From: Myxococcales bacterium | GTDB taxonomy: Bacteria; Myxococcota_A; Polyangia; Polyangiales; Houyiibacteriaceae | DNA: 64,000 bases | Assembly: GCA_024640845.1 (NCBI GenBank) | Contig: JAHEEE010000145.1 | Location: 456 to 64,455, forward strand | Direction of reading: 5' to 3' | In this document: piece after piece, positions 3,379 to 22,444 of the stretch | How the letters are laid out: each line of letters opens with the position of its first letter | Position numbering within the stretch: position 1 is the first letter of the stretch | The notes under the pieces: generated by a model | What the model was told of the DNA's origin: nothing | Databases searched by the model: none | The model's input: the letters and a program-made list of their open reading frames with translations, nothing else | Made by a program: the position numbers and the translations under genes

Positions 3379-3386
3379 GTAGAACG

Positions 3387-5006: not shown

Positions 5007-5032
5007 GGATTTGCAACGAAAGGAACACGAAA

Positions 5033-5233
5033 ATGAACATCGACAAACTGGTTTTTCGAGTCGCTGGGGTGATGATCATGACCGGCGTGGTACTTGCCTT
5101 CATTCACCACATCGGATGGCTCGCGCTTCCGGCGTTCGTCGGCCTCAACATGTTTCAGGCCTCCTTCACTGGCTTCTGCCCCATGGCGAGCATCGCAAAG
5201 CGCTTCGGCGTCGAGCAGGGAAGCGCGTTCTGA
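5033..5233 (+). CDS. DUF2892 (YgaP C-terminal-like) small membrane protein
   Basis: 66 aa with two hydrophobic helices and the characteristic ...FQASFTGFCP... motif. Confidence 0.6.
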   Translation: MNIDKLVFRVAGVMIMTGVVLAFIHHIGWLALPAFVGLNMFQASFTGFCPMASIAKRFGVEQGSAF

Positions 5234-5254
5234 GTGTGTGATCTTGCCGGGCTG

Positions 5255-7465
5255 CTAGTTTCGACCGTCGGCGTGGCAATCTAGGCAGAAGTTGGGGGGC
5301 GCAGGACCACTCGGGTAGTTGCGCACCTCTCTGTGCTTCGGATCCAACTCGCTTCGCGTGTGCTCGCCATCATGGCACCCGACACAGTCGGCGTTCTGGC
5401 CGCCGACCGGCGAGCCCAGTGCCACGTTGTGACAGGACGCGCAGTCGTTGCGGTATCGCGAGTGGGCTCCCGATTGAATCGGGAAAGCGCTTTCGGGATG
5501 GATGCCACCCGTGGCGGGAAGCCACGCCGACGTCGCATGGCAGCCCAGGCAGTCGCCCGTGCCTGGGTGTGTCGTAGTCGTCGGACGTTGTGATTCGTGA
5601 CAGTCGTAGCAGCGGGTCGGCGTCGGAGAATGTGCGAACGCTGACGGTGTCCAGACCGGATACGAGTGATGACAGCTCGCACACTCCGGGTCGTAGGTTT
5701 GCGTATGGAACGGGTTGTTCGAGCGGGGTTCGCTTCCATGGCAGCCGATACAGGTGGCCGGGAGGGGCGTATGAAGTGCCACCGGGTCGGCAAGTGTCCA
5801 GTCGGTGACGACGTGGCAGCCCGCGCAGTCACCGAGGCCCGCGGCAGATTGGTGCGTCGGCGTCGCGGGCCGCAGATCGCCATGGCAAGCGTTGCAGGCG
5901 CTCGGCACGGGTGCGTGAAGGAAGTCAGCCTGTGTCCAATCCGGATAGTTTCGGTGACAGCTGGCGCACTCTGTCTGCGAGACCTGCGTGTGGAAAATCG
6001 TGGGCTGCCGCGGCTCGTTCTGGTGACACGTCAGACAGGATGCCGGAAGCGGCGTGTGGAGAGTCGCCGGGTCCGCTGCGGCCCAGCTCGTGACGAGGTG
6101 GCACGATGCGCAATCGCCCTGGCCCGCCGCGGTTTGGTGTGTGGCAGTGTTTGGCCTCTTGTCCGAGTGGCAGTCTACACAAGTGCTCGGAGCGGGTGCA
6201 TGCGGGAAGTCCGCCAGCATCCAGTCTGGATAGTCGTAGTGGCAGCGGGCGCACTCGGGCTCTACCGACTGGATATGGTAGGTCGTGGGCTCTCGCGGCT
6301 CGGTTTGGTGACACGTCCTGCAAGACGCTGGGAGCGGCGCGTGGAGCGCGTCTGGGTCGGTGATTGTCCAGTCGTCGACGACGTGACAGCGGGCACAGTC
6401 GGCGAGCCCCGCGGCGGACTGATGGGTCGGTGTGCTGGGTCTCAGATCGCGATGACAGTCGCTACAGACGCTCGGCACCGGCAAATGCAGGAAGTCGGCG
6501 GGTATCCATTCCGGATAGGTCCGGTGACAGCGTGCGCACTCCGGTTCGAGGACCTGAGCGTGGAAGATCGTGTCGGGTTGCGAGTCGTTTTCGTGACACG
6601 TGAAGCACGACGCCGGAAGTGGTGTATGGATGGCCTCCGGGTCCGTCGTCGCCCAATCGTCTACGACGTGGCAACCGGCACAATCCGCGCGACCGGCAGT
6701 CGAGTCGTGCGTCGGATCCATGGGCCTCTCTTCGCTGTGGCAGTCGGTACAGGTGCTTGGCACGGGCGCATGAGCGAAGTCGGCGGGTACCCACTCCGGG
6801 TAAGTCTGGTGACAGCTCGCACACTCCGTCTCGACGGACTGAGTGTGGAAGACGGTCTCCGGTAGCGGGTCGTTCTGATGGCACGTGCTGCAAGACGCGG
6901 GCAGGGGAGTGTGAAGCTCCGCCGGGTCCGTGACGGCCCAATCGCTGACGATGTGGCAGGAGGCACAATCCGCCTGGCCTTGCGGCGCCTGGTGCGTCGG
7001 CGTGTCCGGTCTCCGGTCGGAGTGACAGTCCATGCAGACGCGTGTTGCTGGCGCGTGAAGGAAGTTTGCCTGCATCCAATCCGGATAGCTCCGGTGGCAG
7101 CCAGCGCACTCGGTCTCAAGATCCTGAGTGTGGAAGACGGTCTCTTGTCGGGTCTCGTCTGCATGGCAAGAGATGCACGATTCCGGAAGCGGCGTGTGGA
7201 TCGTCGTAGAGACTGCGGGCACCCACTCGCGCTCCGTGTGGCAGTCCTGACAGGTGGTGGGTAGCGTCTCGTGCGGTGGGCTCAGCGCGGCCTTGCGGTC
7301 CGCCTCATGGCAGGTGAAGCATTCGGCTTGGACGATGATGCCAGGCTCGTGAGACGGGGCGGCCGTACCGCTGCAGCCGGCACCGATCGAAGCCCCCGCG
7401 CTGACCGCGAGCACCACAGGCCACACGAGCCGCCGATGGCAACTAACCCCCATGGGTGATATCAT
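5255..7465 (-). CDS. 29-heme c-type cytochrome lipoprotein
   Basis: 736 aa. Signal peptide with lipobox (...SIGAG/C). I counted 29 CXXCH motifs, with extra His at regular spacing consistent with bis-His ligation. Confidence 0.9.
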   Translation of the reverse strand: MISPMGVSCHRRLVWPVVLAVSAGASIGAGCSGTAAPSHEPGIIVQAECFTCHEADRKAALSPPHETLPTTCQDCHTEREWVPAVSTTIHTPLPESCISCHADETRQETVFHTQDLETECAGCHRSYPDWMQANFLHAPATRVCMDCHSDRRPDTPTHQAPQGQADCASCHIVSDWAVTDPAELHTPLPASCSTCHQNDPLPETVFHTQSVETECASCHQTYPEWVPADFAHAPVPSTCTDCHSEERPMDPTHDSTAGRADCAGCHVVDDWATTDPEAIHTPLPASCFTCHENDSQPDTIFHAQVLEPECARCHRTYPEWIPADFLHLPVPSVCSDCHRDLRPSTPTHQSAAGLADCARCHVVDDWTITDPDALHAPLPASCRTCHQTEPREPTTYHIQSVEPECARCHYDYPDWMLADFPHAPAPSTCVDCHSDKRPNTATHQTAAGQGDCASCHLVTSWAAADPATLHTPLPASCLTCHQNEPRQPTIFHTQVSQTECASCHRNYPDWTQADFLHAPVPSACNACHGDLRPATPTHQSAAGLGDCAGCHVVTDWTLADPVALHTPLPATCIGCHGSEPRSNNPFHTQTYDPECASCHHSYPVWTPSAFAHSPTPTRCYDCHESQRPTTTTHPGTGDCLGCHATSAWLPATGGIHPESAFPIQSGAHSRYRNDCASCHNVALGSPVGGQNADCVGCHDGEHTRSELDPKHREVRNYPSGPAPPNFCLDCHADGRN
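5485..7198 (-). repeat. Six tandem ~95-aa tetraheme repeat units inside the 29-heme gene
   Basis: The unit HTPLPxSCxxCH..FHTQ..ExECAxCH..YPxW..A.F.HAP.PS.C..CH...RP..PTH....G..DCA.CH.V..W...DP..L recurs six times. Boundaries are approximate. Confidence 0.8.
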
Positions 7466-7477
7466 AGCCCGAACATG

Positions 7478-7497
7478 ATTAACCCGACTAGGTTAAT
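7478..7497. promoter_or_regulatory. Inverted repeat ATTAACC-N6-GGTTAAT upstream of the 29-heme gene
   Basis: Perfect 7-bp arms in a visibly AT-rich 94-bp gap, 13-32 bp upstream of the start codon at 7465. Confidence 0.3.
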
Positions 7498-7559
7498 TAA
7501 AAGTGCCCCTAGAATCAAAGCCTTACCTCGCTTCGGCCTTCGAAAGATGGAGAGTCTGC

Positions 7560-8345
7560 TCAATGACCGGCCAGGGCGGCGGCCGGCATCGCGAAGCGTG
7601 AGTCGTCGAGGGGCGGGTTGACTTCCACGGTCTCGACGGTGAGGGTGTGCATGTCACTCGATCCCTCGGTCCGCGTTTCCTGGCGGTGCGGGATGAGGAG
7701 ACCTCCCTCGGTCGGTTGCCAGTCTCGGTAGAAGGTTTCGACGCGCCGCTCGCGCCCACCGACCGTACGTAGGGCCTCGACCTTGAGCTCGAGACCGCTT
7801 TCCGGGTCGATGTACACCCAGCGCGCGGCACCCCTGGGCAAGGTCACCTCAAGCTTGACGGCATCCCGCCCCTCAACCGACTCCGTCCCCAGGTACTCCA
7901 CGTTGTGTCCACGGGGGCCGTAATCGAAGAGGAGGCCGTAGAGGTCGGCTGCGTCCGCCGTCTCACGCAGCTCCTTCTCGGTCATCGGCTCGGGTGCTGT
8001 CCGCCCCTGGAACGGCACGAGCTTCCACCCCTCTTTGCCGTCGGTGCACTGGATGGCGGTCTCCCCGTCGAAGACGAACTCGAGGCACATCTTGTCGGGC
8101 CGCTTCTGCTCGAGCACGTACGGCACCTTCATCCCCTTGCCCACGTCCATCTGGCCTGTGAGGCGAAGCGAGGAGACGGCGTCCCAGGAGTCGTCCCCGC
8201 CGCGCGCCTCGATGTTTTCGGCGACCAAGTTGCCTATGGCCCGTGCGCGTCCGAGCGGCGTCCCAGTCCAAGAAAACAAAAAGAGCGTCACCAGGCCGAG
8301 CCCGAGGGCCGCTGCGAGCACGGATATCAACGTACTTCGTTTCAT
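7560..8345 (-). CDS. Secreted LolA-fold-like (outer-membrane lipoprotein-sorting family) protein
   Basis: 261 aa with an N-terminal hydrophobic anchor or signal. Sequence style resembles the LolA-like/DUF4292-type lipoprotein carriers. Only 6 nt from the upstream gene. Confidence 0.5.
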   Translation of the reverse strand: MKRSTLISVLAAALGLGLVTLFLFSWTGTPLGRARAIGNLVAENIEARGGDDSWDAVSSLRLTGQMDVGKGMKVPYVLEQKRPDKMCLEFVFDGETAIQCTDGKEGWKLVPFQGRTAPEPMTEKELRETADAADLYGLLFDYGPRGHNVEYLGTESVEGRDAVKLEVTLPRGAARWVYIDPESGLELKVEALRTVGGRERRVETFYRDWQPTEGGLLIPHRQETRTEGSSDMHTLTVETVEVNPPLDDSRFAMPAAALAGH

Positions 8346-8351
8346 AGATCT

Positions 8352-8864
8352 CTACCTCACCACCAGCCCATCGACGCGGAACTCACCGATCTCGATGCTG
8401 ACTTGCTGGCCCGATTTCACTAGCTGGCCGGGGTTGGCAAAGAACATCCAGTAGGTGCGTCCCTCGATGGGCGCGTTCGAGTTGCGGAGCGCGCCGGTTT
8501 TGGCCGGCGTGGGCACGACGAGCGTTGCGCCCGTCTCCGTGTGGGTCAGCGCCGGCTTGGTCTGGCGCTCGAACAGCGCCTTCGCCTTCTCTGCGTCGAG
8601 CACGCGGTACCGAAACTCGAGCATGTAACCGGCCGCGGTTTGTCGCACGCCCATGAGCTCGACACCCCAGCGGCGCTTGATGTAGGTCTTGTCGCGGGGG
8701 TGGTGGGCCAGCTCGGCCGAGGCCGCTGTCGCAGGGGAGACGGTGGCCTGAGCCGATCCCTCGAGCGCTCGCACTTCGGGCGCGGGTCCAACGAGGGCAC
8801 CGGCGATGGCGAGGCCGACCGCGAGAAACCCTAGGAGCGACCGGGAGAAATGTAGATCCACCAC
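8352..8864 (-). CDS. Secreted hypothetical protein
   Basis: 170 aa with a signal-like N-terminus (LLGFLAVGLAIAGALVG). Coding-like composition. Sits 10 nt downstream of the giant gene. I recognise no motif. Confidence 0.55.
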   Translation of the reverse strand: MVDLHFSRSLLGFLAVGLAIAGALVGPAPEVRALEGSAQATVSPATAASAELAHHPRDKTYIKRRWGVELMGVRQTAAGYMLEFRYRVLDAEKAKALFERQTKPALTHTETGATLVVPTPAKTGALRNSNAPIEGRTYWMFFANPGQLVKSGQQVSIEIGEFRVDGLVVR

Positions 8865-8874
8865 CTAGCCCTCC

Positions 8875-11800
8875 CTAGGGGATCACGCAGGTGCCCTGGT
8901 TGACCGGGGGCCCTGAATTGGGCGGGCAGTCTGCGTCGACCGCGCAAGTCGCCCCAGCGTTATCTCCGAACTCACAGATTCCGGGTGCGTCCTCGTCGGC
9001 GCCGATGTCAAAGTCGCCTCCCAGCGGCCGGACATCGTTGTCGTAGTCCATGCTCGGCGCATTGGTCGCTGAGCCGGCGTCGATCGCCGATGAAGGCGCG
9101 GCGATGTGGTAGTTCCAGGGCGCGCTTCCGTCCGGCCAGGCCTGCGTCAGCGGACCGTAGCGCACGTCGATCCAGGCCGCGCCGCCCTCGTCCAGCGCGG
9201 GAAGCGCCAGCATCGGGCCAGGGGGGGTCTCAAGGGTGCGACCACCATTGCAGTAGGCGTTCACCAGCCCAGGGTCACCCGACGTATTGCTGGGGTCGTA
9301 GCCGCTTGCGTCGGTCAGCACCGAGGAGACCGGGTCGAGCATAAAGCCTCCGCCGAGGACCCCGAGATCCTGGTAGTTCGCGGGGGAGGGACACTCCCCG
9401 ACGATGCTCTGGCTGAGGACTGGCATGAGCCCGGCGCCCGCGGGCAGGGTGGCATCGTAGTGGAAGGAGCGGTTCTCCCACACGATGTTGTTCGACAGGA
9501 TCGGGTTCGAGAAGTCCCGGTAGTTGCCGGTGTTGTTTTGAACCGGGATGGCGGCGTTGAGCGCTGTGCTGTGGGGCTCCGAGGAGATGCCCGCCGGCTG
9601 GTTCGCGGAGACGTTTGGGTCCCCAGTCGTGAACGTGGCGGAGACCGTCGCCGTGCTGTCGTTGTGAGCGATCGTGTTGTTGACGATGAAGCTGCGCGCA
9701 GTGTCCTGCGTGGACACCCCGCCGCCCGACCAGCCCGCGACGTTGTTGACGATCATGTTGTTGTTGAGCGTCACGGCGTACCACATGCCAGGTCTGGCCC
9801 TCCCGTTATTGGGGTTGTTCGAGTTGGGGATGTCGCGGCCGTTGACGAACTGGGTGCGGACCCCGCCGCCGTGTCCCGCTCCGGCGTGGTTGCCCTGGAT
9901 GAGGTTGGCGTCCACGAGGACACTGCCCGAACCGCGGGTGAGGCCGTCGACCGCTGGCGGCTCTCCCGCAATGAACAACCCGCCCCCGGACCGCGTCGTC
10001 GCTTGAGCGAACGACTGGTTGAGGACGATCCGGTTGTCCTCGATCACGCCGTTGTTGCTGAGGCCCAGGTGCCCGATGCCGCCCCCATCGCCCGTCGTGA
10101 AGTTCCCGCAGACGAAGTTGTGGCTCACGACGTAGAAGTCGCTGCCGGTGCAGAGCGAAAGACCGCCGCCGGCCCCGCCGAGGCCACCGTTCTGGATGAT
10201 CGCGTTGTCGTGGATCTTCACGTGTGGGTTGAAGGCGAAGGGGCCCTCTCCGGTCAGCTCGAGGAACGGCCGGCCGACACGGATGCCGCCGTGGTACGAG
10301 CCGGCGTTGCCGAACACGCGGTTGTTGGCGATCTCGAGGCCGTGCGCGTACCCGTTGACGAAGATGCCGCCTCCGATGTCGCCACCTGTGATCGAGAAGC
10401 CGTCGATCCGAGACTCGAAGCTCCGGAAGGCGCTGGCCGGCGGCGGGCCCTCGCCGGAGTCGAACACGCCGAGCACCGTGATGGCGGCACCCTCCTCGGT
10501 CTCGACGCCGGCGGCCCCATCGGGCTGGGTGGGCAGGGCGTCCACTTCATCGGTGCAGCCCGCTCCGATCCCGAAAACGCAGTCCATTTTTGCCCGCCAC
10601 GCCGCCATCGTTTCCGCAGGGCGCTTTGCGGCATTGAGGAAGGTCGAACCGGCGCCCGCGCCCTGCAGGCGGACGGGCTTCCACATGATGACGAGCTCGT
10701 CGTACGCGCCCGGCTCCACGAGGATGAGCGCGCCCCGCGGCGCATTGTCGATGGCGTCTTGGATCGAGCCACCGGCCGCCACGCGGATCGGAATCTCATT
10801 GGACACGGTGACCGTCGCGGAGTGGACCGTGGAATTTCCATTGTCGCGCGTCACGACCAGCTCGCCGCTCATCTCCGTTGCCGGCGCCGTTGCCTCGATC
10901 GTGTCCGCATCCCAGCTGGTGATGGCAAGCGGCACGCCACCCACGGTGACGCTGCTGCCCGGTCCCTGAGCTCCGAACCCGAAGTCGCGCTGGATCGTTT
11001 TTTGCGCCGCGGCCCCGCTCGCGAGTGGTCCCTCGTAGGCCGGGTTCGGCACCTCGACCGAGCTGCCGAGGGAGTGGATCGTGAGGGTTCCGCCCGGGGC
11101 GACGAGAGGCCCCGCGCCCGTGCCGTCTACCTGGCGAACCGACGGCGTACCCGCAGGGAGCGCGCAATCCGGCGGGTTGTATCCGGAAGCGAAGGCCGAC
11201 ACTGGGAGCACCGGCGTATCGAGATACGTCGTCGTCCCCGGCATGTATTGGAACGTGTAGCAGAAGTTGCTGTACGCGGGGTTGTACTGGGGGTCGACGA
11301 TCGACTGACCGGGGTTGGCCGGGTCGGGGATCGGGCCCGGGTCGTTCATGCACGTGGTGAGCATCGCGGGTGAGTAGCCGCTCGGCGAGGGCATGTTCGC
11401 CGTGAACGTGGACGGCACGAGCCCGTTGATGCGCCCCCACTGGTCGGAGTAGATCCGCGAGATTTCCGCGCCCCGGTAGTCGCGGATCGAAACCGGCACG
11501 AAGGGGGGCGCCCACTTCTCACCGAACTGCGGCGAGAAGATGCTGAACTCCTGCGCCAGGTCGTCGAGAACCATGCCCGCGAAGTGGCCGGCGATCGGCG
11601 CTCCGGTGAAGAGGAAAAAGTCGGCGGCGGCTTGTCCCTGGTCGGAGAGGATGACCTCTTTGCGGTCGCAGAGCGGCCTCAAGTCGCCGGCGAACGGCGC
11701 CTCGATCATCTCGTCGGGGAAGAGGCTCAGGTACGGAGGCACCTCACGCATCTCGCCGACGCACCGCGGCTGGGCGAGCCCGGGCTCCGGGCCCATCGCC

Positions 11801-14800
11801 GCCAGTACGGTCGCTAGGTTGGGCATGATCATGACCATCGCGCCGCCGGGCATCATCATCGCCACCGGCGCCATGCCGAAAGCGTCCCCGAAGCCGACGT
11901 TGTTGTCTTCTTCCTTCAGAAGATCGTAGCCGGGCGGGGGCACCACCTCGACGACGTACTTGCCGGGCGGGATATCCATGAACGCGTAGCCGCCGTCAAA
12001 GACCGCTGGCCGAGCCTGGTTGAAGTTGCGGAGCCCGTCGTAGCATTTGTCTACGGGTCCACCCGTGAGGATCGCATCGCTCGGGTCGGCGCCGGGGCAG
12101 CCCGTCGGCAGGCTGTCGTCCCAGCTGTCGGTCGTGGTCTCCTCCACCAGGGCGAGGGCGGTCGTCAACGCGCCATTCGCATCGAAGTGCGCCTGGATCT
12201 GGGTCGCGGTCAGCGCAGATTCATAGATCGCCACTTCATCGATGGTGCCGTCAAAGATGTGGCCCCTCGCACCGACGGGGTCCGAGTCGGCGCCGATCGT
12301 GATCGGCAAAGCGTTGACGTTCGTCGTGGCCGTTCCGAGCGCAACGCGATCCACCTCGACACCGTCGACGTAGAGGATCGCGTCGGTGCCATCGAACACC
12401 CCAACGACGTGGAAGGTGGTCCCGGCGGGCGGCGTGGTCGGGGCTTCCGCGATCACCCAAGCCGTATCCGTGCTGTTCCGGACTTGGAAACGCAGCTTGC
12501 CCTGGTTGAGCCACAGCAGCCACGCTCCGGTCACACCGATCTCGTCCTTCACCACGATCCGATGCCCCTCCGTATCGATCGTGTTGGCGTTGACCCACGC
12601 CTCCACCGAGAACGCGCTATCCGACAGCGCGGTCACACCGGTGTCGACGAAGTCGGTGGTGGTCGTTCCGTCGAATCCTGCTGCCGTATTGGGGCTATTG
12701 CCGAGCAGTCCCGTCGCCGGCAGCGTCACCGTCGACCCATAGGTGCCATCACTGCCCCCGGTCTGATCGAGCGCTGGTCCCACGGTCGTTGATTCGCCCA
12801 GACGGTAGTAGTGGTTCGGCCCGTCGGCGAGAACGGTACTCGCGTAGGCGCTCGTCTCCACCTCCCGGTAGAGGCGGACCTTGACGCCCGGTATGCCCGG
12901 CTCCCAGGGCTCGCCGACGGCGAGCCGCGGGTCATTCTCGGCGCGGGTCGATGGATAGTAGACGATCCCCGAGATGCCGCCGTTTTCACCCGGTGCGTAG
13001 GGGGCCTTGCCCCATTCGAAGATGCTCGTCTGGCCGAGGAAGCCCTGGAAGCCCTCGGTGAGGACGGGGCCGAGCTCGGTGCGCGTCGTCGACATGCCGT
13101 CCGCCTGCACCTGCGGGTTGAGGACGTTGCCTGTCGCGCTCACGTCGCCCCCGCCGTCGACGGTCACGGTCAGGCCCGTCGCCTTGAAGCGCGTGAAATC
13201 GACCTCCAGCACCTGCCAGTGAAAGAAGGGGAATGTCTGGTCGAAGGGCACGAAGCCTTCGGTGTCGGTCGGGAAGGACTGATTGACCGTGCCGTCGCGC
13301 CAACGCAGGTTCACCGCCTGCTCGGCAACGGGCCCCTCGTCGGGATCACGAATGCCGTTCTGGTTCTCGTCCAGGAACACGTTGTGCTCGGTGCGCGCAA
13401 ACCATTGGAAGACGGGCACGTTGCCGACTGCTCCCCCACCGGGCAGCTCGACTCCGCGGTAGGCGATGATCTGATCGAGGTAGCTGTCCCAGACCACGAG
13501 CTGATAGCTGCCGTCGGGTACGTTGCTGATCGTGAAGTTGCCATCGGCGTCTGCCTGGACGGCGGCGATGTTGGGACCGAGGCCACCGGCGGAGTTGAGG
13601 CCGACCCAGGCTCGGGTGTGAGCCAGGGCGTCGTACGATTGGCTGTCCCAGAGCGTTTGGTCGGGCGGGCGGGACATGTGAAGGTTGGTGACGCGTCCCG
13701 TGACGGTGTTGGCGCCGCCTGGATTGACGAGGTTGTCGGGGTTGACGAAGCCGACGAACACGTGCCAGCCGGCGGGCCCGAACTCTTGGAAGAAGGGGGG
13801 CTCGCCCGCCTTCACCCAGGCGTCGATGACCTTGGTTCCTTCGATGGTCGAGGTCTGCGTCCAGGTTTCCGGGCCCGGGGGCGCGACGGCGATCACGCCG
13901 TACTTACCGGGGTAGAGGTTCTTGATGAGCGCCTGGCCCACCAGACCTGCCTCCTGGTTCGCCACGGTATTGGGGCAGGTGAGGATGACCCCCATGGGTG
14001 GCGGCGCATCCCCAAAGCAGTCGAGCGAGTTCTGCAGCGGATTGCCGAAGGCATCCTGCATCATCGTCCCGCCCGAGATGCCATAGCGTCCGCCGGCATC
14101 CTCGAGGGTGATCTGGAAGCCGCCGAGGCCGAGGCCCGCCTCGCCGCCGTCGACGGCGCCGTTGGTCGGGCTGCTGTCCTCGAAGACGTAGACACTGATC
14201 TGGGCCGAAGGCAACGGCTGCTTGTTTACGGTGACCGTCACCGCCGTGGCGGCGGGCGGAATCCGGGCGCCGCCTATGGTGTGGCCCGTACCGGTCGCCG
14301 CGTCGGCGGGCAGGACCGAGACGTAGTAGTGCTTCGTCGGGTCGAGCGCGAGCTGGGCGAACTCTGTGGCGCCGCTGCCCTGCGCCACGATCGGCATGTA
14401 GCTTTTGTGGAAGTTCGTTGCCAGCGTGTCCGTCGGGGGAGGCACGACGCTTGGGTCCGGCTGCCACATCGCGTCCTCTTCGACCACCCAGCGGTAGTCG
14501 GTGACGGCGACGTCGAGGGGGTCCTTCACAGTCAGCGCGATGTTGGCGACCGGGTTGATGTTTAGCGTCACCGTCGCGGGATTACTCAGCCCGCTGCCGT
14601 CGCTGGCGCGATAGGAGAAGGTCGCGGCGGTGCCGCCCGTGTACTCGAACGAGCCGTCGGCATGCAGCGTGAGTCCCGCGGGGGCGGTTCCCTCGATCAC
14701 CGCCCTGAGCGTATCGCCGTCCGGGTCCATGTCGTTGCCGAGGACGCCGGGGGCCGCGACTATGATGTCTGGCCCAATCCCGTTGACATAGGGTCCATCG

Positions 14801-16803
14801 TCGGCCGCTACTGGGAGGTCATTCTCGAAGGAGACGTTGAGGGCGACTTCGACGAGCGTTCCGTCGCCGGCCCTGTAGGTAAAACCATCGCTGCCCGAGA
14901 AGTTTTCGTACGGCGTGTAGGTGAATGAGCCGTCGCCGTTCAGTACGAGCATGCCGTTCGACGGTCCGCTCACCAAGGTTGCACCCGAAATCCCGCCGGG
15001 GGCGGCGCCGATCAGGGCGGTGTCTTCGATGGCGTCATAAGATGTGAGCACAGGATCCGGGGGCTGCGTCGGAGGCGGAGAACCGGTGCCTACTTTCAGG
15101 TACGCCAGCATCCCGCCGTCCGCCTGGTTGTCGCTGCTGAGATCGAGCATCCGGTCGAAGAGCGGGTACGTCGCATCGACGGCGGGCACGGCGACGAGGA
15201 CGTCGAGGGTCTTGCCCGCGGGCAGGAGCGACGATGCCTGGCGCCGCAGGAGTCCCGGATACGGATTGCCGTCTTCCGCGACCGGTCGCATGTCGAGGCC
15301 GACGATGGCCGGTGCGTGAGAGCGCAGCCCCGCGTTGAGGAAGCGCAAGAGGAGGTCTTTGCCCGGCATGCCCGCAGGTATCGCCGGGGGCGGCGACGCC
15401 GTGTCGTACGACTCAGCGTTGATCAGGAAGTAGGTCGGATTGTAGTCGACCGTGCAGGGATAGCCGACGTCGCCGACCGCGTATTCGGCCAGGTTGACGC
15501 ACGCATGGGTCAGCGGCAACGCCATCCCCGCTGCCTCGGCGACCCGCATGTTCTGCCACGGGTCGATCTCGCTGAAGAGCGCCACGGGCTCGGCGTTGTT
15601 CGCATCGAAGTGCGCCTGGATCTGTGTTGCGGTCAGCGCAGATTCATAGATCGCCACTTCATCGATGGTGCCGTCAAAGATGTGGCCTTTCGCACCGACG
15701 GTGTCCGAGTCGGCGCCGATCGTGATCGGCAAAGCGTTGGTGTTCGTCGTGGCCGTTCCGAGCGCAACGCGATCCACCTCGACACCGTCGACGTAGAGGA
15801 TCGCGTCGGTGCCATCGAACACCCCAGCGACGTGGAAGGTGGTCCCAGCGGGCGGCGTGGTCGGGGCTTCCGCGATCACCCAAGCCGTATTCGTGCTGTT
15901 CCGGACCTGGAAGCGAAGCTTGTCCTGGTTGAACCACAGGATCCACGCCCCGGTCACACCGATCTCGTCTTTGGCCACGATCCGATGTTGTCCATCCGTT
16001 GCGGCGGCGTTGACCCAGGCTTCCGCGGAGAACGCGCTAGCCGACGTGGACGTCACGCCGGTATCGACGAAGTCGGTGGCGGTCGTTCCGTCGAATCGAG
16101 CAGCGCTGTCGGTGCCGTAGCCCAGCAAGCCCTTCTTCACCGTCGACCCGTAGGTGCCGTTGGTGGCCCCCGACCCCAGATCGACGGCTGGATCCGCGTT
16201 TGTTGATTCTCCAAGACGGTAATAGTGGATCGGCCCGTCGGCGAGAACCGTACTGGCGTAACTTGGGGTGCTGGGATGCACGATCAAGGCGCCATAAAGG
16301 CCCATCGGCACCTGGATCGACGATTGAGTCCCGCTCTGGTAGAGGTAGGTGCCGGGGCGTAAGGGGCTCCAGGTGTAGTCGGCCGTGAGATCAGGCGCCG
16401 TCTCATGGGTGAACGACTGGACGCGCCGCCTCCCCTGACCGTCCGTGCTCCACTCCGGGTCACCACCGCCGGCCTGACCCGGGATCACGATGGAGACCGG
16501 CGTATCCAGCGTGTTCTTCAGATGAATCGTCAGCGTGTCGGTGTCCGAGAGATGGATCTGGGGCCCGGGCGCGTCGGTCTCGGACGGGAGATCACAGCTG
16601 GTGAAGGTCGCATCCGTGCATAGCGCGAAGCCCCACATGGGGACCGTGCCGCCCTCCCCGGACAGGACCTTGTCGAAGCCCTGCGCCTGAAGGTAGACGT
16701 CGTTGGCGGCGGCGACGGCGGGTGAGACGCTCGCGGCGAGGAGGAGGCCAGCGCATGCAAGCACGGCTGTCCTAAAAATGGCCTTCAGTAAGGTCGATCG
16801 CAT
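8875..16803 (-). CDS. Giant (2,642 aa) secreted multidomain protein. Domains: ligand-less MCO-like cupredoxin pair, 2x LamG, cadherin/VCBS-like, SdrD-B/CarboxypepD-like, IPT/TIG, right-handed beta-helix, Cys-rich tail.
   Basis: Start moved to the ATG at 16803 (MRSTLLKAIFRTAVLACAGLLLAASVSPAVAAA signal peptide, GGAGGAGAAG upstream, 17 nt after the upstream stop). Domain calls come from sequence style. Cupredoxin: PGPQIHL...LYGALIVH. LamG: FDGT..FV.....FS.EAWV...LYVDG. Cadherin-like: DGSFTYTP..F.G.DGFTY, GNDMDPDGD. TIG: SVTVGGVPL. Beta-helix: GG.FV.G....I.NN runs. Confidence 0.9.
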   Translation of the reverse strand: MRSTLLKAIFRTAVLACAGLLLAASVSPAVAAANDVYLQAQGFDKVLSGEGGTVPMWGFALCTDATFTSCDLPSETDAPGPQIHLSDTDTLTIHLKNTLDTPVSIVIPGQAGGGDPEWSTDGQGRRRVQSFTHETAPDLTADYTWSPLRPGTYLYQSGTQSSIQVPMGLYGALIVHPSTPSYASTVLADGPIHYYRLGESTNADPAVDLGSGATNGTYGSTVKKGLLGYGTDSAARFDGTTATDFVDTGVTSTSASAFSAEAWVNAAATDGQHRIVAKDEIGVTGAWILWFNQDKLRFQVRNSTNTAWVIAEAPTTPPAGTTFHVAGVFDGTDAILYVDGVEVDRVALGTATTNTNALPITIGADSDTVGAKGHIFDGTIDEVAIYESALTATQIQAHFDANNAEPVALFSEIDPWQNMRVAEAAGMALPLTHACVNLAEYAVGDVGYPCTVDYNPTYFLINAESYDTASPPPAIPAGMPGKDLLLRFLNAGLRSHAPAIVGLDMRPVAEDGNPYPGLLRRQASSLLPAGKTLDVLVAVPAVDATYPLFDRMLDLSSDNQADGGMLAYLKVGTGSPPPTQPPDPVLTSYDAIEDTALIGAAPGGISGATLVSGPSNGMLVLNGDGSFTYTPYENFSGSDGFTYRAGDGTLVEVALNVSFENDLPVAADDGPYVNGIGPDIIVAAPGVLGNDMDPDGDTLRAVIEGTAPAGLTLHADGSFEYTGGTAATFSYRASDGSGLSNPATVTLNINPVANIALTVKDPLDVAVTDYRWVVEEDAMWQPDPSVVPPPTDTLATNFHKSYMPIVAQGSGATEFAQLALDPTKHYYVSVLPADAATGTGHTIGGARIPPAATAVTVTVNKQPLPSAQISVYVFEDSSPTNGAVDGGEAGLGLGGFQITLEDAGGRYGISGGTMMQDAFGNPLQNSLDCFGDAPPPMGVILTCPNTVANQEAGLVGQALIKNLYPGKYGVIAVAPPGPETWTQTSTIEGTKVIDAWVKAGEPPFFQEFGPAGWHVFVGFVNPDNLVNPGGANTVTGRVTNLHMSRPPDQTLWDSQSYDALAHTRAWVGLNSAGGLGPNIAAVQADADGNFTISNVPDGSYQLVVWDSYLDQIIAYRGVELPGGGAVGNVPVFQWFARTEHNVFLDENQNGIRDPDEGPVAEQAVNLRWRDGTVNQSFPTDTEGFVPFDQTFPFFHWQVLEVDFTRFKATGLTVTVDGGGDVSATGNVLNPQVQADGMSTTRTELGPVLTEGFQGFLGQTSIFEWGKAPYAPGENGGISGIVYYPSTRAENDPRLAVGEPWEPGIPGVKVRLYREVETSAYASTVLADGPNHYYRLGESTTVGPALDQTGGSDGTYGSTVTLPATGLLGNSPNTAAGFDGTTTTDFVDTGVTALSDSAFSVEAWVNANTIDTEGHRIVVKDEIGVTGAWLLWLNQGKLRFQVRNSTDTAWVIAEAPTTPPAGTTFHVVGVFDGTDAILYVDGVEVDRVALGTATTNVNALPITIGADSDPVGARGHIFDGTIDEVAIYESALTATQIQAHFDANGALTTALALVEETTTDSWDDSLPTGCPGADPSDAILTGGPVDKCYDGLRNFNQARPAVFDGGYAFMDIPPGKYVVEVVPPPGYDLLKEEDNNVGFGDAFGMAPVAMMMPGGAMVMIMPNLATVLAAMGPEPGLAQPRCVGEMREVPPYLSLFPDEMIEAPFAGDLRPLCDRKEVILSDQGQAAADFFLFTGAPIAGHFAGMVLDDLAQEFSIFSPQFGEKWAPPFVPVSIRDYRGAEISRIYSDQWGRINGLVPSTFTANMPSPSGYSPAMLTTCMNDPGPIPDPANPGQSIVDPQYNPAYSNFCYTFQYMPGTTTYLDTPVLPVSAFASGYNPPDCALPAGTPSVRQVDGTGAGPLVAPGGTLTIHSLGSSVEVPNPAYEGPLASGAAAQKTIQRDFGFGAQGPGSSVTVGGVPLAITSWDADTIEATAPATEMSGELVVTRDNGNSTVHSATVTVSNEIPIRVAAGGSIQDAIDNAPRGALILVEPGAYDELVIMWKPVRLQGAGAGSTFLNAAKRPAETMAAWRAKMDCVFGIGAGCTDEVDALPTQPDGAAGVETEEGAAITVLGVFDSGEGPPPASAFRSFESRIDGFSITGGDIGGGIFVNGYAHGLEIANNRVFGNAGSYHGGIRVGRPFLELTGEGPFAFNPHVKIHDNAIIQNGGLGGAGGGLSLCTGSDFYVVSHNFVCGNFTTGDGGGIGHLGLSNNGVIEDNRIVLNQSFAQATTRSGGGLFIAGEPPAVDGLTRGSGSVLVDANLIQGNHAGAGHGGGVRTQFVNGRDIPNSNNPNNGRARPGMWYAVTLNNNMIVNNVAGWSGGGVSTQDTARSFIVNNTIAHNDSTATVSATFTTGDPNVSANQPAGISSEPHSTALNAAIPVQNNTGNYRDFSNPILSNNIVWENRSFHYDATLPAGAGLMPVLSQSIVGECPSPANYQDLGVLGGGFMLDPVSSVLTDASGYDPSNTSGDPGLVNAYCNGGRTLETPPGPMLALPALDEGGAAWIDVRYGPLTQAWPDGSAPWNYHIAAPSSAIDAGSATNAPSMDYDNDVRPLGGDFDIGADEDAPGICEFGDNAGATCAVDADCPPNSGPPVNQGTCVIP
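12176..12846 (-). repeat. LamG-domain DNA repeat, copy 2 (intragenic)
   Basis: Aligns with 15599-16260. Includes identical runs of 54 nt (12211-12264 = 15634-15687) and about 85 nt. Confidence 0.9.
15599..16260 (-). repeat. LamG-domain DNA repeat, copy 1 (intragenic)
   Basis: Partner of 12176-12846. Inserted between the two cupredoxin-like domains. Confidence 0.9.
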
Positions 16804-16820
16804 GGCTCTTCTCCTCTGCC

Positions 16821-18176
16821 TCACTCGACAATCTCGATCTGGGGGGCTTCGATGATCAGCATGGTCATCATCCCGCCGGGGAAAACGTCGTTGTTCACCA
16901 TCTCGCGCTCGGTGTGCGAGTGCCACATGTACGCAAAGCCTGCGTTTGGATTGAGACCGCCCTCGCCGGGGGGAAGGCCGCCGGCCGCTCCGAGATAGGG
17001 GCTGCCGCCGTAGAAGCCGCCGAAGGTCAGGACGCTCTGACCGGGCAGGGTCACGGGGATCGCCCGGTTGTGGTCGCCGCACCACTCGCGGTAGTTATCA
17101 TCGGTCGCGACACTGTGATATCCGTCCGCGTCGGGGGTGCACGCGCTGCCGTCGCCCGGAGTGTGACCGTACATGTCCCAGCCGAGGTCTTTGCCGGTCC
17201 ACTCGAAGATCGCGTCGACCGTTCCGCCCGGCGCCGACGGAATGGTGAAGAGCAGCGGGCCAGCGAGCTGATTGGCGTCGGTCGCGCTAACGAGCAGGCG
17301 GCCATCACGGGCGAGGACGCGCGCGTGGTTCCCGTGGTGGTGGAAGGGATGCATATGGTGACCCGCGCCCACCACTCGCATCAGCAGCCGCTCGCCAGGG
17401 TGCATGCGCGGCATGCAGTTGTAGGGCTGGCTCGGCAGCAGATCGCGGCCGGCCGCGGACATCGTGTCCGGCGCCGCGCGACCGTTGAGGAGCCAGTACT
17501 CCGGAACGTACGGCTCGGTGATGACGTCGATCGGTCCGGGTCCCGAGGCCTGTAGCTCCGCCGCCCGGTGGATGTCGATGTCCACCTCGCTCAGGAGGAA
17601 CAGGTACTCGCGGTCGAAGCAGGTGCCCGAGTGGCCGTAGGCGGAGGCGGTGCACCCGGCGGCGGGCCCCGCCGGCTCGACGATGAGCGCCCCGTAAAGG
17701 CCCATCTCGACCTGCAGATCCGGTCGCGTGCCGCTGTGATACTGGTAGGTTCCCGGTTCGCCGGCCGTGAAGGTGTAGGTGACGGACCCGCCGAGCGGGG
17801 CTTCCTGGGTCAGGAGGCCCGGCACGCCGTCCGTCGATGTCACTTCGTGACCAGGGAACAGGATCGACACGTTGCCCGCGGCTGCGGGAAGCGCGTTGTG
17901 GAGAGTGACCGTGACTGTCGCACCTTCCGTCACGATCAACGTCGGCCCGGGTAGCTGCATCGGGTCGGCGCCGTCGCTGTAGCCCCACGAGTAGATGGAC
18001 CCGCCGTCCGCGATGGAGATGTAGCCCGCGCTCGCCGTGAGCGAGAACGTTGGGCCGGCCACGCCGTCGATCCCGGCACGTGCGGCTTCAGGAGCCATCA
18101 GCAACACCAACGTGGCGGCGAATGAGAACAACCGGACCACCCGGAAATTTCGCTTCTTTGTCTCGAACCTAGTCAT
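16821..18176 (-). CDS. Two-domain multicopper-oxidase-like protein lacking the type-1 Cu site
   Basis: 451 aa with a signal peptide. Domain 1 motifs are degenerate (ILFPGHEV, YQYHSGT). Domain 2 has a canonical HPFHHHG (HxxHxH), but its last motif reads WHSHTEREM...GGMM where HCHxxxH is expected (Cys to Ser, His to Glu). Confidence 0.85.
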   Translation of the reverse strand: MTRFETKKRNFRVVRLFSFAATLVLLMAPEAARAGIDGVAGPTFSLTASAGYISIADGGSIYSWGYSDGADPMQLPGPTLIVTEGATVTVTLHNALPAAAGNVSILFPGHEVTSTDGVPGLLTQEAPLGGSVTYTFTAGEPGTYQYHSGTRPDLQVEMGLYGALIVEPAGPAAGCTASAYGHSGTCFDREYLFLLSEVDIDIHRAAELQASGPGPIDVITEPYVPEYWLLNGRAAPDTMSAAGRDLLPSQPYNCMPRMHPGERLLMRVVGAGHHMHPFHHHGNHARVLARDGRLLVSATDANQLAGPLLFTIPSAPGGTVDAIFEWTGKDLGWDMYGHTPGDGSACTPDADGYHSVATDDNYREWCGDHNRAIPVTLPGQSVLTFGGFYGGSPYLGAAGGLPPGEGGLNPNAGFAYMWHSHTEREMVNNDVFPGGMMTMLIIEAPQIEIVE

Positions 18177-18186
18177 TGCCGCTCTC

Positions 18187-19449
18187 CTAGTTGATCCGGA
18201 TCTCGGTCATCATTCCGCCGAAGTTTTCGGCGTCGTTTGCCAACTGGTGGAGGTTGGTGGTGTAGAGGAAGTAGGTGCTGCCCGGCGCCAGTCCTGCGGT
18301 GTCGAGGATCACGTCCGCGGACTGACCACCGCCGAGCGTCACCGAGTTGGTTTTGTAATAGAGGTTGTTGCCCCAGTCGTCGCGCAGCAGTCGCGCATCC
18401 AACGCGACCACCTCCATCGGGATCCCGTTCGTGCCCAGTGTGTTGAACTGGGTGACGTTGAGGTTGGAGATGCGGAGCAGAATGCGGTCGCCCGCGTTCG
18501 CCGTGATCAGGCTCGACACCGGTTGCGAGGGTCGGCCATCGGTGGAGAGGACGCCCGCGTTCACGGTGTCCGGGTAGCCACGGCCGTTCAGGAGGAAGTA
18601 GCGGTCCTTCATCCCGGCGAAGGGCAGTGGCTGCACGTTGAAACTGGCGTCGTGGAAGTCGGGGTCGAAGGAGCCGATTTGGATCGGCACTTCGACGTCG
18701 TACCGCGTGGAACCGTCGCCGTCGTTGTAGGCGTACGCGTCGCTCGGAGCGTGACCTACAGGGCAGACACTGCCAGGGACCGCGGGGTCGTCAGCTATGG
18801 TATCGCAGCGGTTCTGCCTCGGCCGCACGTACAGGTTGCCGAGCATCCCCATTTGCATGTGCTCGGTGGCCTCGACGTGGCAGTGGTACATGTACGTACC
18901 GGCGTCCTTGGCGTTGTAGTAGTAGGTGAAACTGGCCCCCATGTTGATCGAAACCGAGGCGTCGGGGACACCGTCGAAGATCGACGCCGCCTGCGGGAAG
19001 CCGTGCCAGTGGATGGTGTGGGGGTCGAACAGATCGGGCCGAAACGCCATCCCGACATTGGTGTTGGTCAGAAAGAGCTCGTCGTCTTCGTCGACCACAA
19101 TCGTCGGAGCCGGACTGTTCGCCGCGAGCATTCCCTGCTCCATGACCCATCCGGGATACTGTTCGGGCGGGACGGGGGCGTCGTCAGGGAGCGCGATCCG
19201 GGCAAAGCTGAAGATGTACTGCTGCTTCTGCGCATCATCGGCCATCGTCACCAGACCGTCGCCTGACGCGACGTGGTCGCACTTGATCCCCGCTTCTCGC
19301 GTCGTGTCGTCGCCGTCGGTGTTCGGGTGCAGGACCGTCTCGGTCGGGCATTGGACGTAGATGTTGCTTTCCTGAGCGCTTGCGGTGGCGGCCACGCACA
19401 GCACGGAGATCACGATGAGCGCCGGCCGGCGCGTGTTTCTCAAGACCAT
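18187..19449 (-). CDS. Two-domain multicopper oxidase with all Cu ligands in domain 1
   Basis: 420 aa. N-terminus ...NTRRPALIVISVLCVAATASA is a possible Tat or Sec signal. HTIHWHG and YHCHVEATEHMQMGM lie in the first cupredoxin domain. The second domain has no His motifs. Confidence 0.9.
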   Translation of the reverse strand: MVLRNTRRPALIVISVLCVAATASAQESNIYVQCPTETVLHPNTDGDDTTREAGIKCDHVASGDGLVTMADDAQKQQYIFSFARIALPDDAPVPPEQYPGWVMEQGMLAANSPAPTIVVDEDDELFLTNTNVGMAFRPDLFDPHTIHWHGFPQAASIFDGVPDASVSINMGASFTYYYNAKDAGTYMYHCHVEATEHMQMGMLGNLYVRPRQNRCDTIADDPAVPGSVCPVGHAPSDAYAYNDGDGSTRYDVEVPIQIGSFDPDFHDASFNVQPLPFAGMKDRYFLLNGRGYPDTVNAGVLSTDGRPSQPVSSLITANAGDRILLRISNLNVTQFNTLGTNGIPMEVVALDARLLRDDWGNNLYYKTNSVTLGGGQSADVILDTAGLAPGSTYFLYTTNLHQLANDAENFGGMMTEIRIN

Positions 19450-19530
19450 GTCACTCGCTCCTTCCCGAAGGAGAGACAGTGCCTGGTTGGCCAGTCTCGC
19501 GTCCCGGCAGGGGTTAAGGAAATCGCGTCA

Positions 19531-19546
19531 GATCTTGTGATCTTGT
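19531..19546. promoter_or_regulatory. Tandem direct repeat GATCTTGT x2 upstream of the MCO operon
   Basis: Perfect 8-bp repeat, 82-97 bp upstream of the MCO start (19449), in the 180-bp gap below the AraC-type gene. Confidence 0.25.
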
Positions 19547-19629
19547 GTACAGGCGGATGCGAAGCTGTGAGCTACCTCACGAGTCGCGGCGGCCCATCGC
19601 CCCTAGGTGATCCCCCGGCAGCAGGCGCT

Positions 19630-20130
19630 CTACAAGGCTGCATCATGAAGCGTCGGTGCGATCTCTTCCCACCGGGGCGGACGTCCTGTGGGGTTCTCAT
19701 GCCAATAGCGGTGCACGATCTTCTTACACTCGTATGGTGTGATTCCCGTGCATTTCTTGAAGGCTCGTTCGAAGGTCCTGAGATCTTTGAAGCCGACGGC
19801 TAACGCCAAGTCGACGATACCATGATCGTGGTTGCTCAGCAGGAGCAGCGCGCGATTGATCCGCTCGCGTGAGAGCCAGTCATGGAAAGAGATACCTACT
19901 TTCTCCCGGAACAACCTGCAGAAGTACGTCTTCTCGAGCGCGACGAGCTTGGCCGCGTCAGCCAGACTGAACGGTTCGTCGAAGTGTTCGTCGACGTGCC
20001 GCTTGATCTTCGCCAAACGCGGGCAGAAGACGAACATGTGCTCGTTGATTGGAGAATCCAGAAGTAGCTGCGCTGCAGACAAAACGGACGACCACCATGT
20101 CCTGAGCCATCCTCTTGGGGGTGGGCCCAC
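19630..20130 (-). CDS. Small AraC-family (MarA/SoxS-like, DNA-binding domain only) transcription factor
   Basis: Double HTH signature (...FSLADAAKLVALEKTYFCRLFREKVGISFHDWL...IVDLALAVGFKDLRTFERAFKK..G.TP). No room for a ligand domain. The start is uncertain: GTG at 20130 or ATG at 20037. Confidence 0.75.
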   Translation of the reverse strand: MGPPPRGWLRTWWSSVLSAAQLLLDSPINEHMFVFCPRLAKIKRHVDEHFDEPFSLADAAKLVALEKTYFCRLFREKVGISFHDWLSRERINRALLLLSNHDHGIVDLALAVGFKDLRTFERAFKKCTGITPYECKKIVHRYWHENPTGRPPRWEEIAPTLHDAAL

Positions 20131-20217: not shown

Positions 20218-20377
20218 TATTGTCGACTCGGAGCGATTTTAACTATCTGAATTTCCTTATGACTTCGCGTGTCTTAGGCTTTTTACACGTCTTCGGGGGT
20301 GCGCAGCCCAGCTACCTAAGTTAAGCCTAATGTGCTATTTTCTAAGAGTTCGAGTTTCTCTTATCTGGCGAGTGGCG

Positions 20378-22377: not shown

Positions 22378-22444
22378 GAGAAGTTGGCCCTTTTGTGTCA
22401 ATCCCACCCATTTTGGTATGCTGCAAGCGTAACATGCAGGGCGG

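Follow-up and report, generated by a model that had tools for sequence, protein, structure and literature searches.

A stretch of 64,000 nt from a Myxococcales bacterium (GenBank assembly GCA_024640845.1, contig JAHEEE010000145.1; this whole stretch is referred to as the window) carries at positions 5255-7465 of its reverse strand an open reading frame (ORF) for a protein with 29 CXXCH heme-binding motifs, located directly after a string of genes that includes two for proteins resembling multicopper oxidases (MCO). Is this cytochrome the last product of an MCO operon, or does it belong to another gene set? The explanation that we favour, and regard as rather probable, is that the gene has a promoter of its own and encodes a wire-like lipoprotein of a conserved electron conduit, and that the MCO genes form an independent cassette.

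Architecture and probable lipid anchor of the 29-heme protein

The ORF of 736 residues contains exactly 29 CXXCH motifs, the number that an earlier note on this DNA had counted, and zero variant motifs. Translation of the whole window in six frames yields 73 CXXCH motifs, of which 67 are located in four cytochrome genes and six elsewhere (approximately 0.035 per 736 codons). Because this background is so low, a chance origin of the 29 motifs is excluded. Besides the 58 cysteines in the motifs, the protein possesses only Cys9 and Cys31, the latter in a lipobox. The motifs are spaced by 23/25/23/24 residues six times and then by 20/36/19/33 residues. In Pfam searches the protein matches PF14537 (106.4 bits; cutoff 25), PF14522 (90.4; 24.8), and PF02085 (86.8; 22.9), in agreement with a multiheme c-type cytochrome of the c3/c7 superfamily with predicted heme attachment. 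The mechanically called ORF starts at an ATG at 7465 (736 residues), but a second ATG at 7453 (732 residues) is the conserved one. Residue numbers below refer to the 736-residue form. The gene and its product are divided as follows:

5255..7453, reverse strand: coding sequence of the 29-heme c-type cytochrome lipoprotein (likely start ATG 7453, 732 residues; stop codon 5255-5257)
7373..7453, reverse strand: predicted signal peptide ending in the lipobox IGAG/C (hydrophobic segment; conserved Cys31; Ser at +2)
7217..7372, reverse strand: N-terminal diheme half-unit (hemes 1-2, with His39 and His65)
5507..7216, reverse strand: six tandem 95-residue tetraheme units (residues 84-653, hemes 3-26), at 6932-7216, 6647-6931, 6362-6646, 6077-6361, 5792-6076, and 5507-5791
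5258..5506, reverse strand: C-terminal triheme module (residues 654-736, 83 residues; hemes 27-29; four conserved extra His)

Each tetraheme unit consists of two diheme halves, and the two N-terminal hemes represent one further half. Units 1-5 share 55-68% protein identity with each other; unit 6 is more divergent (40-46% identity to units 1-5) and carries a two-residue deletion. Four histidines outside the heme motifs are invariant in each unit (in lHtPLP, fHtQ, F.HaP, and pTH), so that the identity matrix and the consensus bear out the six repeats of about 95 residues with four extra His each that had been described in the earlier note. The same applies to its statement that the histidines suffice for all hemes: there are 32 non-motif His in total and 31 in the mature protein, compared with 29 hemes, and bis-His ligation of every heme would thus be possible.

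The lipobox (...SIGAG/C) fits the relaxed lipoprotein rule, and the N-terminus contains a hydrophobic segment. The lipobox cysteine is retained in all 12 orthologues, whose consensus is [IL]-G-x-G-C-S-G; among 85 members of the wider family, at least 90% have it as well. The 29-heme protein is therefore a probable lipoprotein, and the lipid anchor previously predicted from the GAG/C motif finds support in this family-wide conservation. According to the sorting rules for lipoproteins, a serine at position +2 after the lipobox cysteine points to the outer membrane, which suggests that the 29-heme protein is targeted there.

Orthologues and the cytochrome family

Eleven orthologues have an identical spacing of all 29 motifs. 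They are encoded at nine loci (L007-L015; loci and contigs are numbered with L and proteins with P) and on the metagenome contigs L079 and L081, and share 67-82% identity with the window protein. The ratio of nonsynonymous to synonymous substitution rates (dN/dS), calculated for the window gene and six orthologues, is 0.11-0.15. Judged by this conservation, the 29-heme ORF is a genuine conserved gene. Its units are positionally orthologous across the 11 orthologues, most clearly units 1, 4, 5, and 6, and because this correspondence holds between species the six-unit state appears to be old rather than the result of a recent expansion. At the DNA level the units share 63-73% identity, and Tandem Repeats Finder detected zero tandem repeats in the gene. 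By all these measures the tetraheme repeats are old.

A scan of species-representative genomes retrieved 72 loci of the wider family, mostly labelled as Myxococcota (Polyangiales, Polyangiaceae, Sandaracinaceae, Haliangium). Relatives with fewer units are P0002, which is encoded on contig L001 and has three units and 17 hemes, and P0001, which has 21 hemes in four units; P0127, a fragment truncated at its N-terminus, was excluded from the count of short variants. When 269 proteins were searched with a profile of the 95-residue unit (hmmsearch), strong matches were found only in P0001, P0002, and P0127, and the remaining proteins scored at most 53 bits. At L019-L021 a 14-heme paralog with a different repeat fills the same slot. 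At L018 (10239-11827) the orthologue is broken and leaves a 325-residue ORF with 11 CXXCH motifs; the adjoining 20-heme gene is fragmentary, too. Either the orthologue has become a pseudogene or the assembly is wrong here.

The most constant part of these proteins is the C-terminal triheme module, in which about 30 columns are invariant in an alignment of eight members (HP..F.I...H...C..CH..LG.P..G.N.DCVGCH.G.H....D..H....YP.G....FCL.CH). Used alone, it retrieved 215 clusters at E<=1e-3, and 99 at E<=1e-10, from 1.84 billion representative proteins. On the evidence of this motif, the module defines an unnamed cytochrome family of the Polyangia (Myxococcota), whose members combine a lipobox and an N-terminal diheme with diheme or tetraheme repeats in variable number and with the fixed C-terminal triheme module. 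All of these features are found in the 29-heme protein. Members of the 8-heme type form 148 clusters, in which every named entry is labelled hypothetical protein, and the few entries with an organism name come from Myxococcales, Polyangiales, or Sandaracinus. The minimal member in the window is an 8-heme paralog, the conserved divergent neighbour of the 29-heme gene. In the literature on multiheme cytochromes of Sandaracinaceae and Polyangia, no description of a family with this C-terminal triheme module was found. Some giant proteins (P0121, P0125, P0130, and P0142, 957-1987 residues) contain the module repeated 11-25 times.

The upstream region and the multicopper oxidase cassette

The region upstream of the cytochrome gene contains two conserved elements:

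7478..7497, not assigned to a strand: palindrome ATTAACC-N6-GGTTAAT, unique in the window (1 match, 0 expected)
7461..7466, reverse strand: -10-like hexamer TATGAT, ending 7 nt before ATG 7453

The palindrome core TTAACC-N6-GGTTAA occurs upstream of 16 of the 16 aligned orthologues, with a variable spacer sequence. It is followed after 11-13 nt by a TAnnnT box, in which the first T, the A, and the final T are invariant in all 16 upstream regions and which is located at a fixed distance from the ATG, ending 7 nt ahead of a conserved CCATG. Because the CCATG context is conserved in these 16 regions, position 7453 is the likely start codon. With a -10-like box only 7 nt from the ATG, the mRNA would be leaderless or nearly so, and a leaderless transcript of the 29-heme gene is probable. 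The conserved motifs indicate that the gene has its own promoter, and the palindrome is probably a putative operator that overlaps the -35 region. The promoter-like block accompanies the cytochrome gene with or without the MCO genes. In L081 two extra genes lie between the MCO genes and the cytochrome gene, yet the palindrome and the TAnnnT box have stayed with the latter.

The AT-rich gap and the inverted repeat mentioned in the earlier note are thus real, but the gap measures 106 nt from the conserved start at 7453 instead of 94 nt. A function of the inverted repeat as a terminator was considered and rejected: the gap contains no terminator-like site, and the intergenic RNA is no stabler than shuffled sequences (z=+1.18). 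The palindrome is also missing from the minimum-free-energy fold of the intergenic RNA, and it is best read as a DNA operator because a terminator-like site is lacking and the RNA is not unusually stable. A sigma-54 promoter, for which TGGCA in the spacer of the palindrome had been considered, was rejected on inspection as well; there is no TTGC at the required distance, and the spacer in the window lacks TGGCA. A second conserved block, CCTTGATTTTAGGGGC-like and located at 7498-7523 on the reverse strand directly upstream of the palindrome, is common to the window, L079, L081, L009, and L016, and could serve as a further binding site or as an UP-like element.

The genes that precede the cytochrome gene in the window, and the 8-heme gene that lies beyond them, are arranged as follows:

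7560..20130, reverse strand: accessory cassette, separate from the cytochrome unit (absent from L001 and the 72 loci; self-contained elsewhere)
19630-20130, reverse strand: AraC-type regulator
18187-19449, reverse strand: MCO420, MCO-like protein of 420 residues
16821-18176, reverse strand: MCO451, MCO-like protein of 451 residues
8875 to ~16803, reverse strand: giant cadherin/Big_9/LamG protein with an N-terminal cupredoxin-like domain
8352-8864, reverse strand: 170-residue protein
7560-8345, reverse strand: LolA-like protein of 261 residues (weak)
20330..21064, forward strand: 8-heme lipoprotein paralog (likely start 20378; N-terminal diheme, one repeat, same C-terminal module)

The cassette genes are packed with gaps of 6-17 nt, compared with the 106 nt before the cytochrome gene. 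The mechanically called ORF of the giant protein (2736 residues) overlaps the MCO451 gene by 265 nt (16803-17085 region, reverse strand); its true start is likely the ATG at 16803 (MRSTLLKAIF..., a signal peptide), 17 nt past the MCO451 stop codon. MCO420 contains the motifs HTIHWHG and HCHVEATEHMQM. MCO451 has HPFHHHG and HSH but lacks an HCH motif, which usually contributes the type-1 copper cysteine. None of the cassette proteins matched an NCBIfam model above its cutoff. The MCO pair may resemble the iodide oxidase IoxA/IoxC.

The claim that the cytochrome gene is the last gene of this string, paired with the MCO, was not confirmed by comparative analyses. Contig L001, the nearest syntenic relative, aligns with the window on both sides of the cassette at 78-82% DNA identity (2-9680 with window positions 30106-20444, and 10187-16539 with 6350-1). 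Between its 17-heme orthologue and the divergent 8-heme gene L001 has 148 bp and lacks the string, in the place where the window has 12.8 kb (7.5-20.3 kb). In a tblastn comparison of 17 window proteins with all loci, there was no match to MCO420, MCO451, the giant protein, the 170-residue protein, the 261-residue LolA-like protein, or the AraC-type regulator in any of the 72 family loci. All-29-heme orthologues without the cassette are found in at least eight species genomes (L007-L009, L011-L015). Orthologues of the cytochrome gene are therefore not always neighbours of the MCO genes, and such missing linkage is what the earlier note itself had named as speaking against its proposal.

The cassette, in turn, occurs without the cytochrome. 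For MCO420 there are more than 8000 relatives. All of the best 120 show 66-95% identity, and they are spread across phyla, including Gammaproteobacteria metagenome-assembled genomes (MAGs). Elsewhere the cassette comprises five genes, which code for an MCO of ~430 residues, an MCO-like protein of ~450, a giant cadherin/Big_9 protein of 2100-2700, a protein of ~110-170, and a LolA-like protein of ~262 residues. The same five-gene order recurs in four unrelated contexts, L085/L086 (a Gammaproteobacteria MAG), L087, L088, and L089, which argues for a self-contained, apparently mobile module. In none of these contexts is the cassette followed by a multiheme gene; the next genes code for SCO1/SenC, an ABC-F ATPase, or a MerR regulator. 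Going by this distribution, the MCO string represents a cassette of five genes that is independent of the cytochrome and has apparently spread horizontally, joined by a regulator specific to the lineage. Marks of a mobile element around the 12.8-kb insert were looked for, and no tRNA, no Rfam match, no convincing flanking repeats, and no integrase were seen. A LuxR-type two-component pair stands ahead of the cassette in other taxa, where SCO1/SenC is often the next gene after it. A palindrome (ACGTAAT-CA-ATTACGT) at ~20195-20217, followed directly by TTGACA on the reverse strand, is located in the interval from the AraC-type to the 8-heme gene and could be the operator of the AraC-type regulator itself.

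In the reverse test, a metagenome search with the LolA-like protein retrieved the cassette contigs L079 and L080/L081, and L090 was found through MCO420. A 29-heme orthologue follows the cassette in L079 and L081, and no cytochrome match was obtained in the fetched stretch of L080. In L090 the cassette lies beside the 8-heme paralog, and the contig ends before the position of the cytochrome gene; the slot between the two cytochrome genes is here probably occupied by the MCO cassette. The juxtaposition is restricted to one sub-lineage, represented by the window, L079, and L081, and by L090 as far as this contig reaches. The slot between the 8-heme and 29-heme genes is variable (window 7500-20330, L008 6230-10000, L081 10770-13240). 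In L008 it harbors a 14-heme paralog, a second iron-sulfur (FeS) flavoprotein, and a 321-residue sensor-like gene; in L081 the cassette is accompanied by an SCO1-like gene and a 491-residue CXXCH protein, both of which the window and L079 lack; and in L001 and at least eight others it is empty. The MCO cassette would thus occupy, in one sub-lineage, a slot of variable content that directly precedes the cytochrome promoter.

Alternatively, the cytochrome could be encoded by the last gene of an MCO operon and exchange electrons with the copper oxidase, for example in a wired extracellular machine that reduces O2 or oxidizes metals. The shared strand, the position directly after the cassette without a terminator-like site in between, and the retention of this arrangement in L079 and L081 (and in L090 up to the contig end) would be in line with such an operon. 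In the window and L079, where the SCO1 gene and the 491-residue CXXCH protein are missing, the cytochrome as a local replacement partner is conceivable. However, no cassette gene is present at the 72 family loci, 29-heme orthologues occur without the cassette, and the cassette lacks a multiheme gene in the four other contexts. The cassette carriers also do not form one clade in the cytochrome tree, where L081 groups with the cassette-less L012 and L015 (neighbour-joining, without support values), and the cytochrome gene has its own conserved promoter region. Multicopper oxidases are supplied with electrons by their substrate and do not depend on a cytochrome. We therefore consider the operon quite unlikely. 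Tested for membership in the cassette, the 29-heme gene stands apart in both its lack of co-occurrence (0 of 72 loci) and its own conserved promoter motifs; on this sequence evidence, the link to the MCO genes is a lineage-restricted juxtaposition of two independent gene sets, and a local functional link within this sub-lineage is likewise quite unlikely.

Partner cluster, function and known systems

The genes beyond the 8-heme paralog, in contrast to the cassette, are shared with many relatives. The conserved partner cluster spans 21061..27583, as supported by synteny in close and distant relatives; a further set lies downstream of the cytochrome gene:

21061-22407, reverse strand: FeS-flavoprotein (FerPyr) with an N-terminal transmembrane (TM) helix, two [4Fe-4S] motifs, and an FAD/NAD(P) oxidoreductase domain
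22445-23359, forward strand: 5-TM protein (304 residues) with four invariant His
23323-24996, forward strand: 20-heme cytochrome, membrane-anchored
~24993-25910, forward strand: 10-heme cytochrome
25874-27583, forward strand: 569-residue secreted protein without a family match
23-5233, forward strand: downstream set, convergent with the cytochrome gene (HAE3/MMPL transporter, LolA_like protein, 546-residue protein, 66-residue membrane protein)

Close relatives share the order 569-residue protein, 10-heme, 20-heme, 5-TM protein, FeS-flavoprotein, 8-heme, 29-heme, 546-residue protein, LolA_like, and MMPL, and the four cytochromes of the locus total 67 hemes. Within 10 kb of the family genes, the FeS-flavoprotein is encoded in 41 and the 5-TM protein in 35 of the 53 Myxococcota loci, including relatives that are only ~30% identical. 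The four His of the 5-TM protein are invariant in 34-38 loci and are arranged in two helices as two H-x13-H pairs, like those of di-heme-b proteins of the ferric-reductase type; a Pfam, NCBIfam, or PDB match to this protein was not obtained. By these features, the FeS-flavoprotein and the 5-TM protein look like a split transmembrane exporter of the NOX/ferric-reductase type that would feed the 20- and 10-heme cytochromes. The 569-residue protein has a signal peptide and a C-terminal aromatic residue and could be a candidate outer-membrane pore. Of the pieces of a porin-cytochrome conduit, the locus thus contains the 20- and 10-heme cytochromes and two lipoprotein cytochromes in synteny, and the 569-residue protein as a barrel candidate only.

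The downstream set is syntenic only in close relatives (17-19 loci), and its first three genes overlap or abut. Its LolA_like protein is a strong match of the TP_0789 type, the 546-residue protein starts with an acidic low-complexity region and has the C-terminal sequence ...RYSF, and the L001 counterpart of the 66-residue protein was called YgaP-like_TM. With additional weak matches to HpnN and BstA, the set may serve lipid or lipoprotein export. PDB sequence searches with the 569-, 546-, and 304-residue neighbours gave nothing useful.

According to the explanation that we favour, the 29-heme protein would be an outer-membrane lipoprotein that carries ~29 covalently bound c-type hemes, each with a candidate second His. 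It would then be a pure electron carrier without an obvious catalytic heme. At ~25 residues per heme, the chain would mostly wrap a continuous heme stack and form a single-polypeptide wire or electron store, and if it is extended like MtrA or GSU1996 of Geobacter its length would be approximately 23-29 nm. The long heme wire proposed in the earlier note is compatible with this architecture of 29 hemes in six units with an ample supply of His. Transcribed from its own promoter with an operator-like palindrome and a -10 box, probably as a leaderless mRNA, the gene would provide a protein that works together with the FeS-flavoprotein, the di-heme-b-like membrane protein, the 20- and 10-heme cytochromes, the putative outer-membrane protein, and the 8-heme paralog. 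In this chain it would most likely be the distal, length-variable outer-membrane element of a trans-envelope electron conduit.

A catalytic role, as a multiheme enzyme that reduces or oxidizes a metal, sulfur, or nitrogen compound, is very unlikely. Some large multiheme proteins are enzymes, and the C-terminal module has one spare His (four for three hemes), which might fit such a role. However, neither CXXCK nor any other variant motif exists, every heme has a conserved candidate distal His, a non-heme domain is lacking, and the number of repeats ranges from three to six units between relatives, which would be unexpected for a defined active site. The dense packing of ~25 residues per heme, together with the second His throughout, the lack of a non-heme domain, and the variable unit number, thus argues for a wire or store rather than an enzyme.

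As another rival reading, the protein might reside on the inner leaflet of the outer membrane and face the periplasm, as an electron store (capacitor) or as a bridge that spans this compartment. The monomeric 12- and 27-heme repeat cytochromes of Geobacter are periplasmic and have been proposed to be capacitors (PMC10138318). The estimated length of 23-29 nm would be of the order of the periplasm width, the sequence contains no sign of surface exposure, and the changing unit number between relatives would suit a storage or spacer role. However, the lipid anchor and the 8-heme lipoprotein paralog next to a putative porin-cytochrome set resemble outer-surface cytochromes. OmcB and MtrC are such outer-surface cytochromes of known conduits. 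We regard the periplasmic orientation as possible but doubtful and retain the distal outer-membrane element as the preferred reading.

Several points weigh against this explanation as a whole. In the window, L079, and L081 the cassette has remained directly upstream of the cytochrome gene and in the same orientation, and this retained juxtaposition could reflect selection for a local link. As the gap between the LolA-like and cytochrome genes contains no terminator-like site, read-through co-transcription from the cassette is possible in the window genome. The barrel candidate of 569 residues has no Pfam, NCBIfam, or PDB match, and the host lineage is uncultured. An AlphaFold2 model of the full 736 residues, built from an eight-sequence alignment, is unusable (predicted local distance difference test (pLDDT) score 33, predicted template modelling (pTM) score 0.19), so that shape and heme packing can only be deduced indirectly. 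The model of the 8-heme paralog (85 sequences) reached a pLDDT of 72, with 78-91 in the C-terminal module, and a Foldseek search with it against the PDB gave no match at E<=10.

A more far-reaching scenario combines both gene sets. The 29-heme wire would be the distal, length-tunable end of an undescribed, quinone-independent electron export system of the Polyangia, in which a membrane-tethered NAD(P)H/FeS flavoprotein and a NOX/FRD-like di-heme-b protein hand electrons from the cytoplasm directly to the 20- and 10-heme cytochromes and onward through an unclassified outer-membrane protein; in the sub-lineage of the window, the captured mobile surface MCO/adhesin cassette would add an extracellular terminus that reduces O2 or oxidizes metals. 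We consider this scenario unlikely.

Multiheme cytochromes built from repeats are an established solution to long-range electron transfer or storage, to which the present analysis adds an unannotated, Polyangia-specific family with a tetraheme unit of changing copy number. Its members with three, four, or six units offer a natural series in which the use of wire length could be studied. The Polyangia are usually seen as aerobic predators and degraders, and many of their MAGs contain the conserved cluster with 67 hemes, which points to extracellular or trans-envelope electron transfer as yet unstudied in the group. The attractive but unsupported idea of a wire that feeds a copper oxidase is removed, and the copper-oxidase genes emerge as a cassette in their own right, which is widespread and merits separate study.

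Among known systems, the closest solved structure by sequence is MtrA (PDB 6r2q_A, E=3e-7). No curated NCBIfam model reaches its cutoff with the 29-heme protein; the best is TIGR03508 (DmsE/MtrA decaheme), which matches in six stretches with 109.6 bits and falls short of the cutoff of 192.2. Several consecutive CXXCH motifs align in register with MtrA, DmsE, and MtoA, and the MtrA family forms linear wires with all-bis-His ligation. The similarity to these decaheme wires appears weak but consistent. However, MtrA is soluble, has 10 hemes, and is threaded through a porin, whereas the 29-heme protein is predicted to be lipid-anchored and has a C-terminal module of its own. With the outer-membrane lipoprotein cytochromes of porin-cytochrome conduits, namely OmcB/OmcC and ExtD of Geobacter and MtrC/OmcA of Shewanella, it shares the organization of a lipoprotein cytochrome that is encoded beside periplasmic cytochromes and a candidate outer-membrane protein. 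Residues 43-174 also match PF22113 (MtrC/MtrF domain II/IV; 60.9 bits). Because the motif spacing never exceeds 36 residues, there is no room for the two beta-barrel domains (I, III) that alternate with two pentaheme domains (II, IV) in MtrC/OmcA, and the protein does not belong to this group: in contrast to MtrC it lacks beta-barrel flavin-binding domains, contains far more hemes, is built from repeats, and appears to be transcribed separately from the conduit genes.

A second comparison concerns the periplasmic tandem c7 triheme cytochromes of Geobacter sulfurreducens, GSU1996 and GSU0592 with 12 hemes and GSU2210 with 27, which were proposed to function as capacitors (PMC10138318). Like the 29-heme protein, these nanowire cytochromes are single polypeptides of tandem multiheme domains with ~25 residues per heme, and a linear heme chain and a wire or capacitor role have been proposed for them (PMC10138318). 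They differ in that they are soluble and composed of triheme domains with one His-Met heme each, whereas the 29-heme protein has a lipobox, a 95-residue tetraheme unit, and His-ligand candidates throughout, and lacks a conserved Met. NF043011, the model for the Geobacter c7 proteins, scores 19.7 bits against a cutoff of 120. Giant tandem-repeat multiheme cytochromes with 30 to >100 hemes have been described from Bacteroidota, Acidobacteriota, and Gemmatimonadota MAGs (PMC11495043). Their unit copy number varies as well, and they are distant matches of the 29-heme protein (~25% identity), but their unit is a triheme of ~73 residues (spacing 25/32/16) and they lack the C-terminal module of the Polyangia family. 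The modular 'grafting and pruning' of heme modules has been described (PMC11492766). Placed beside these systems, the 29-heme protein has the architecture of an uncharacterised but conceptually familiar heme wire.

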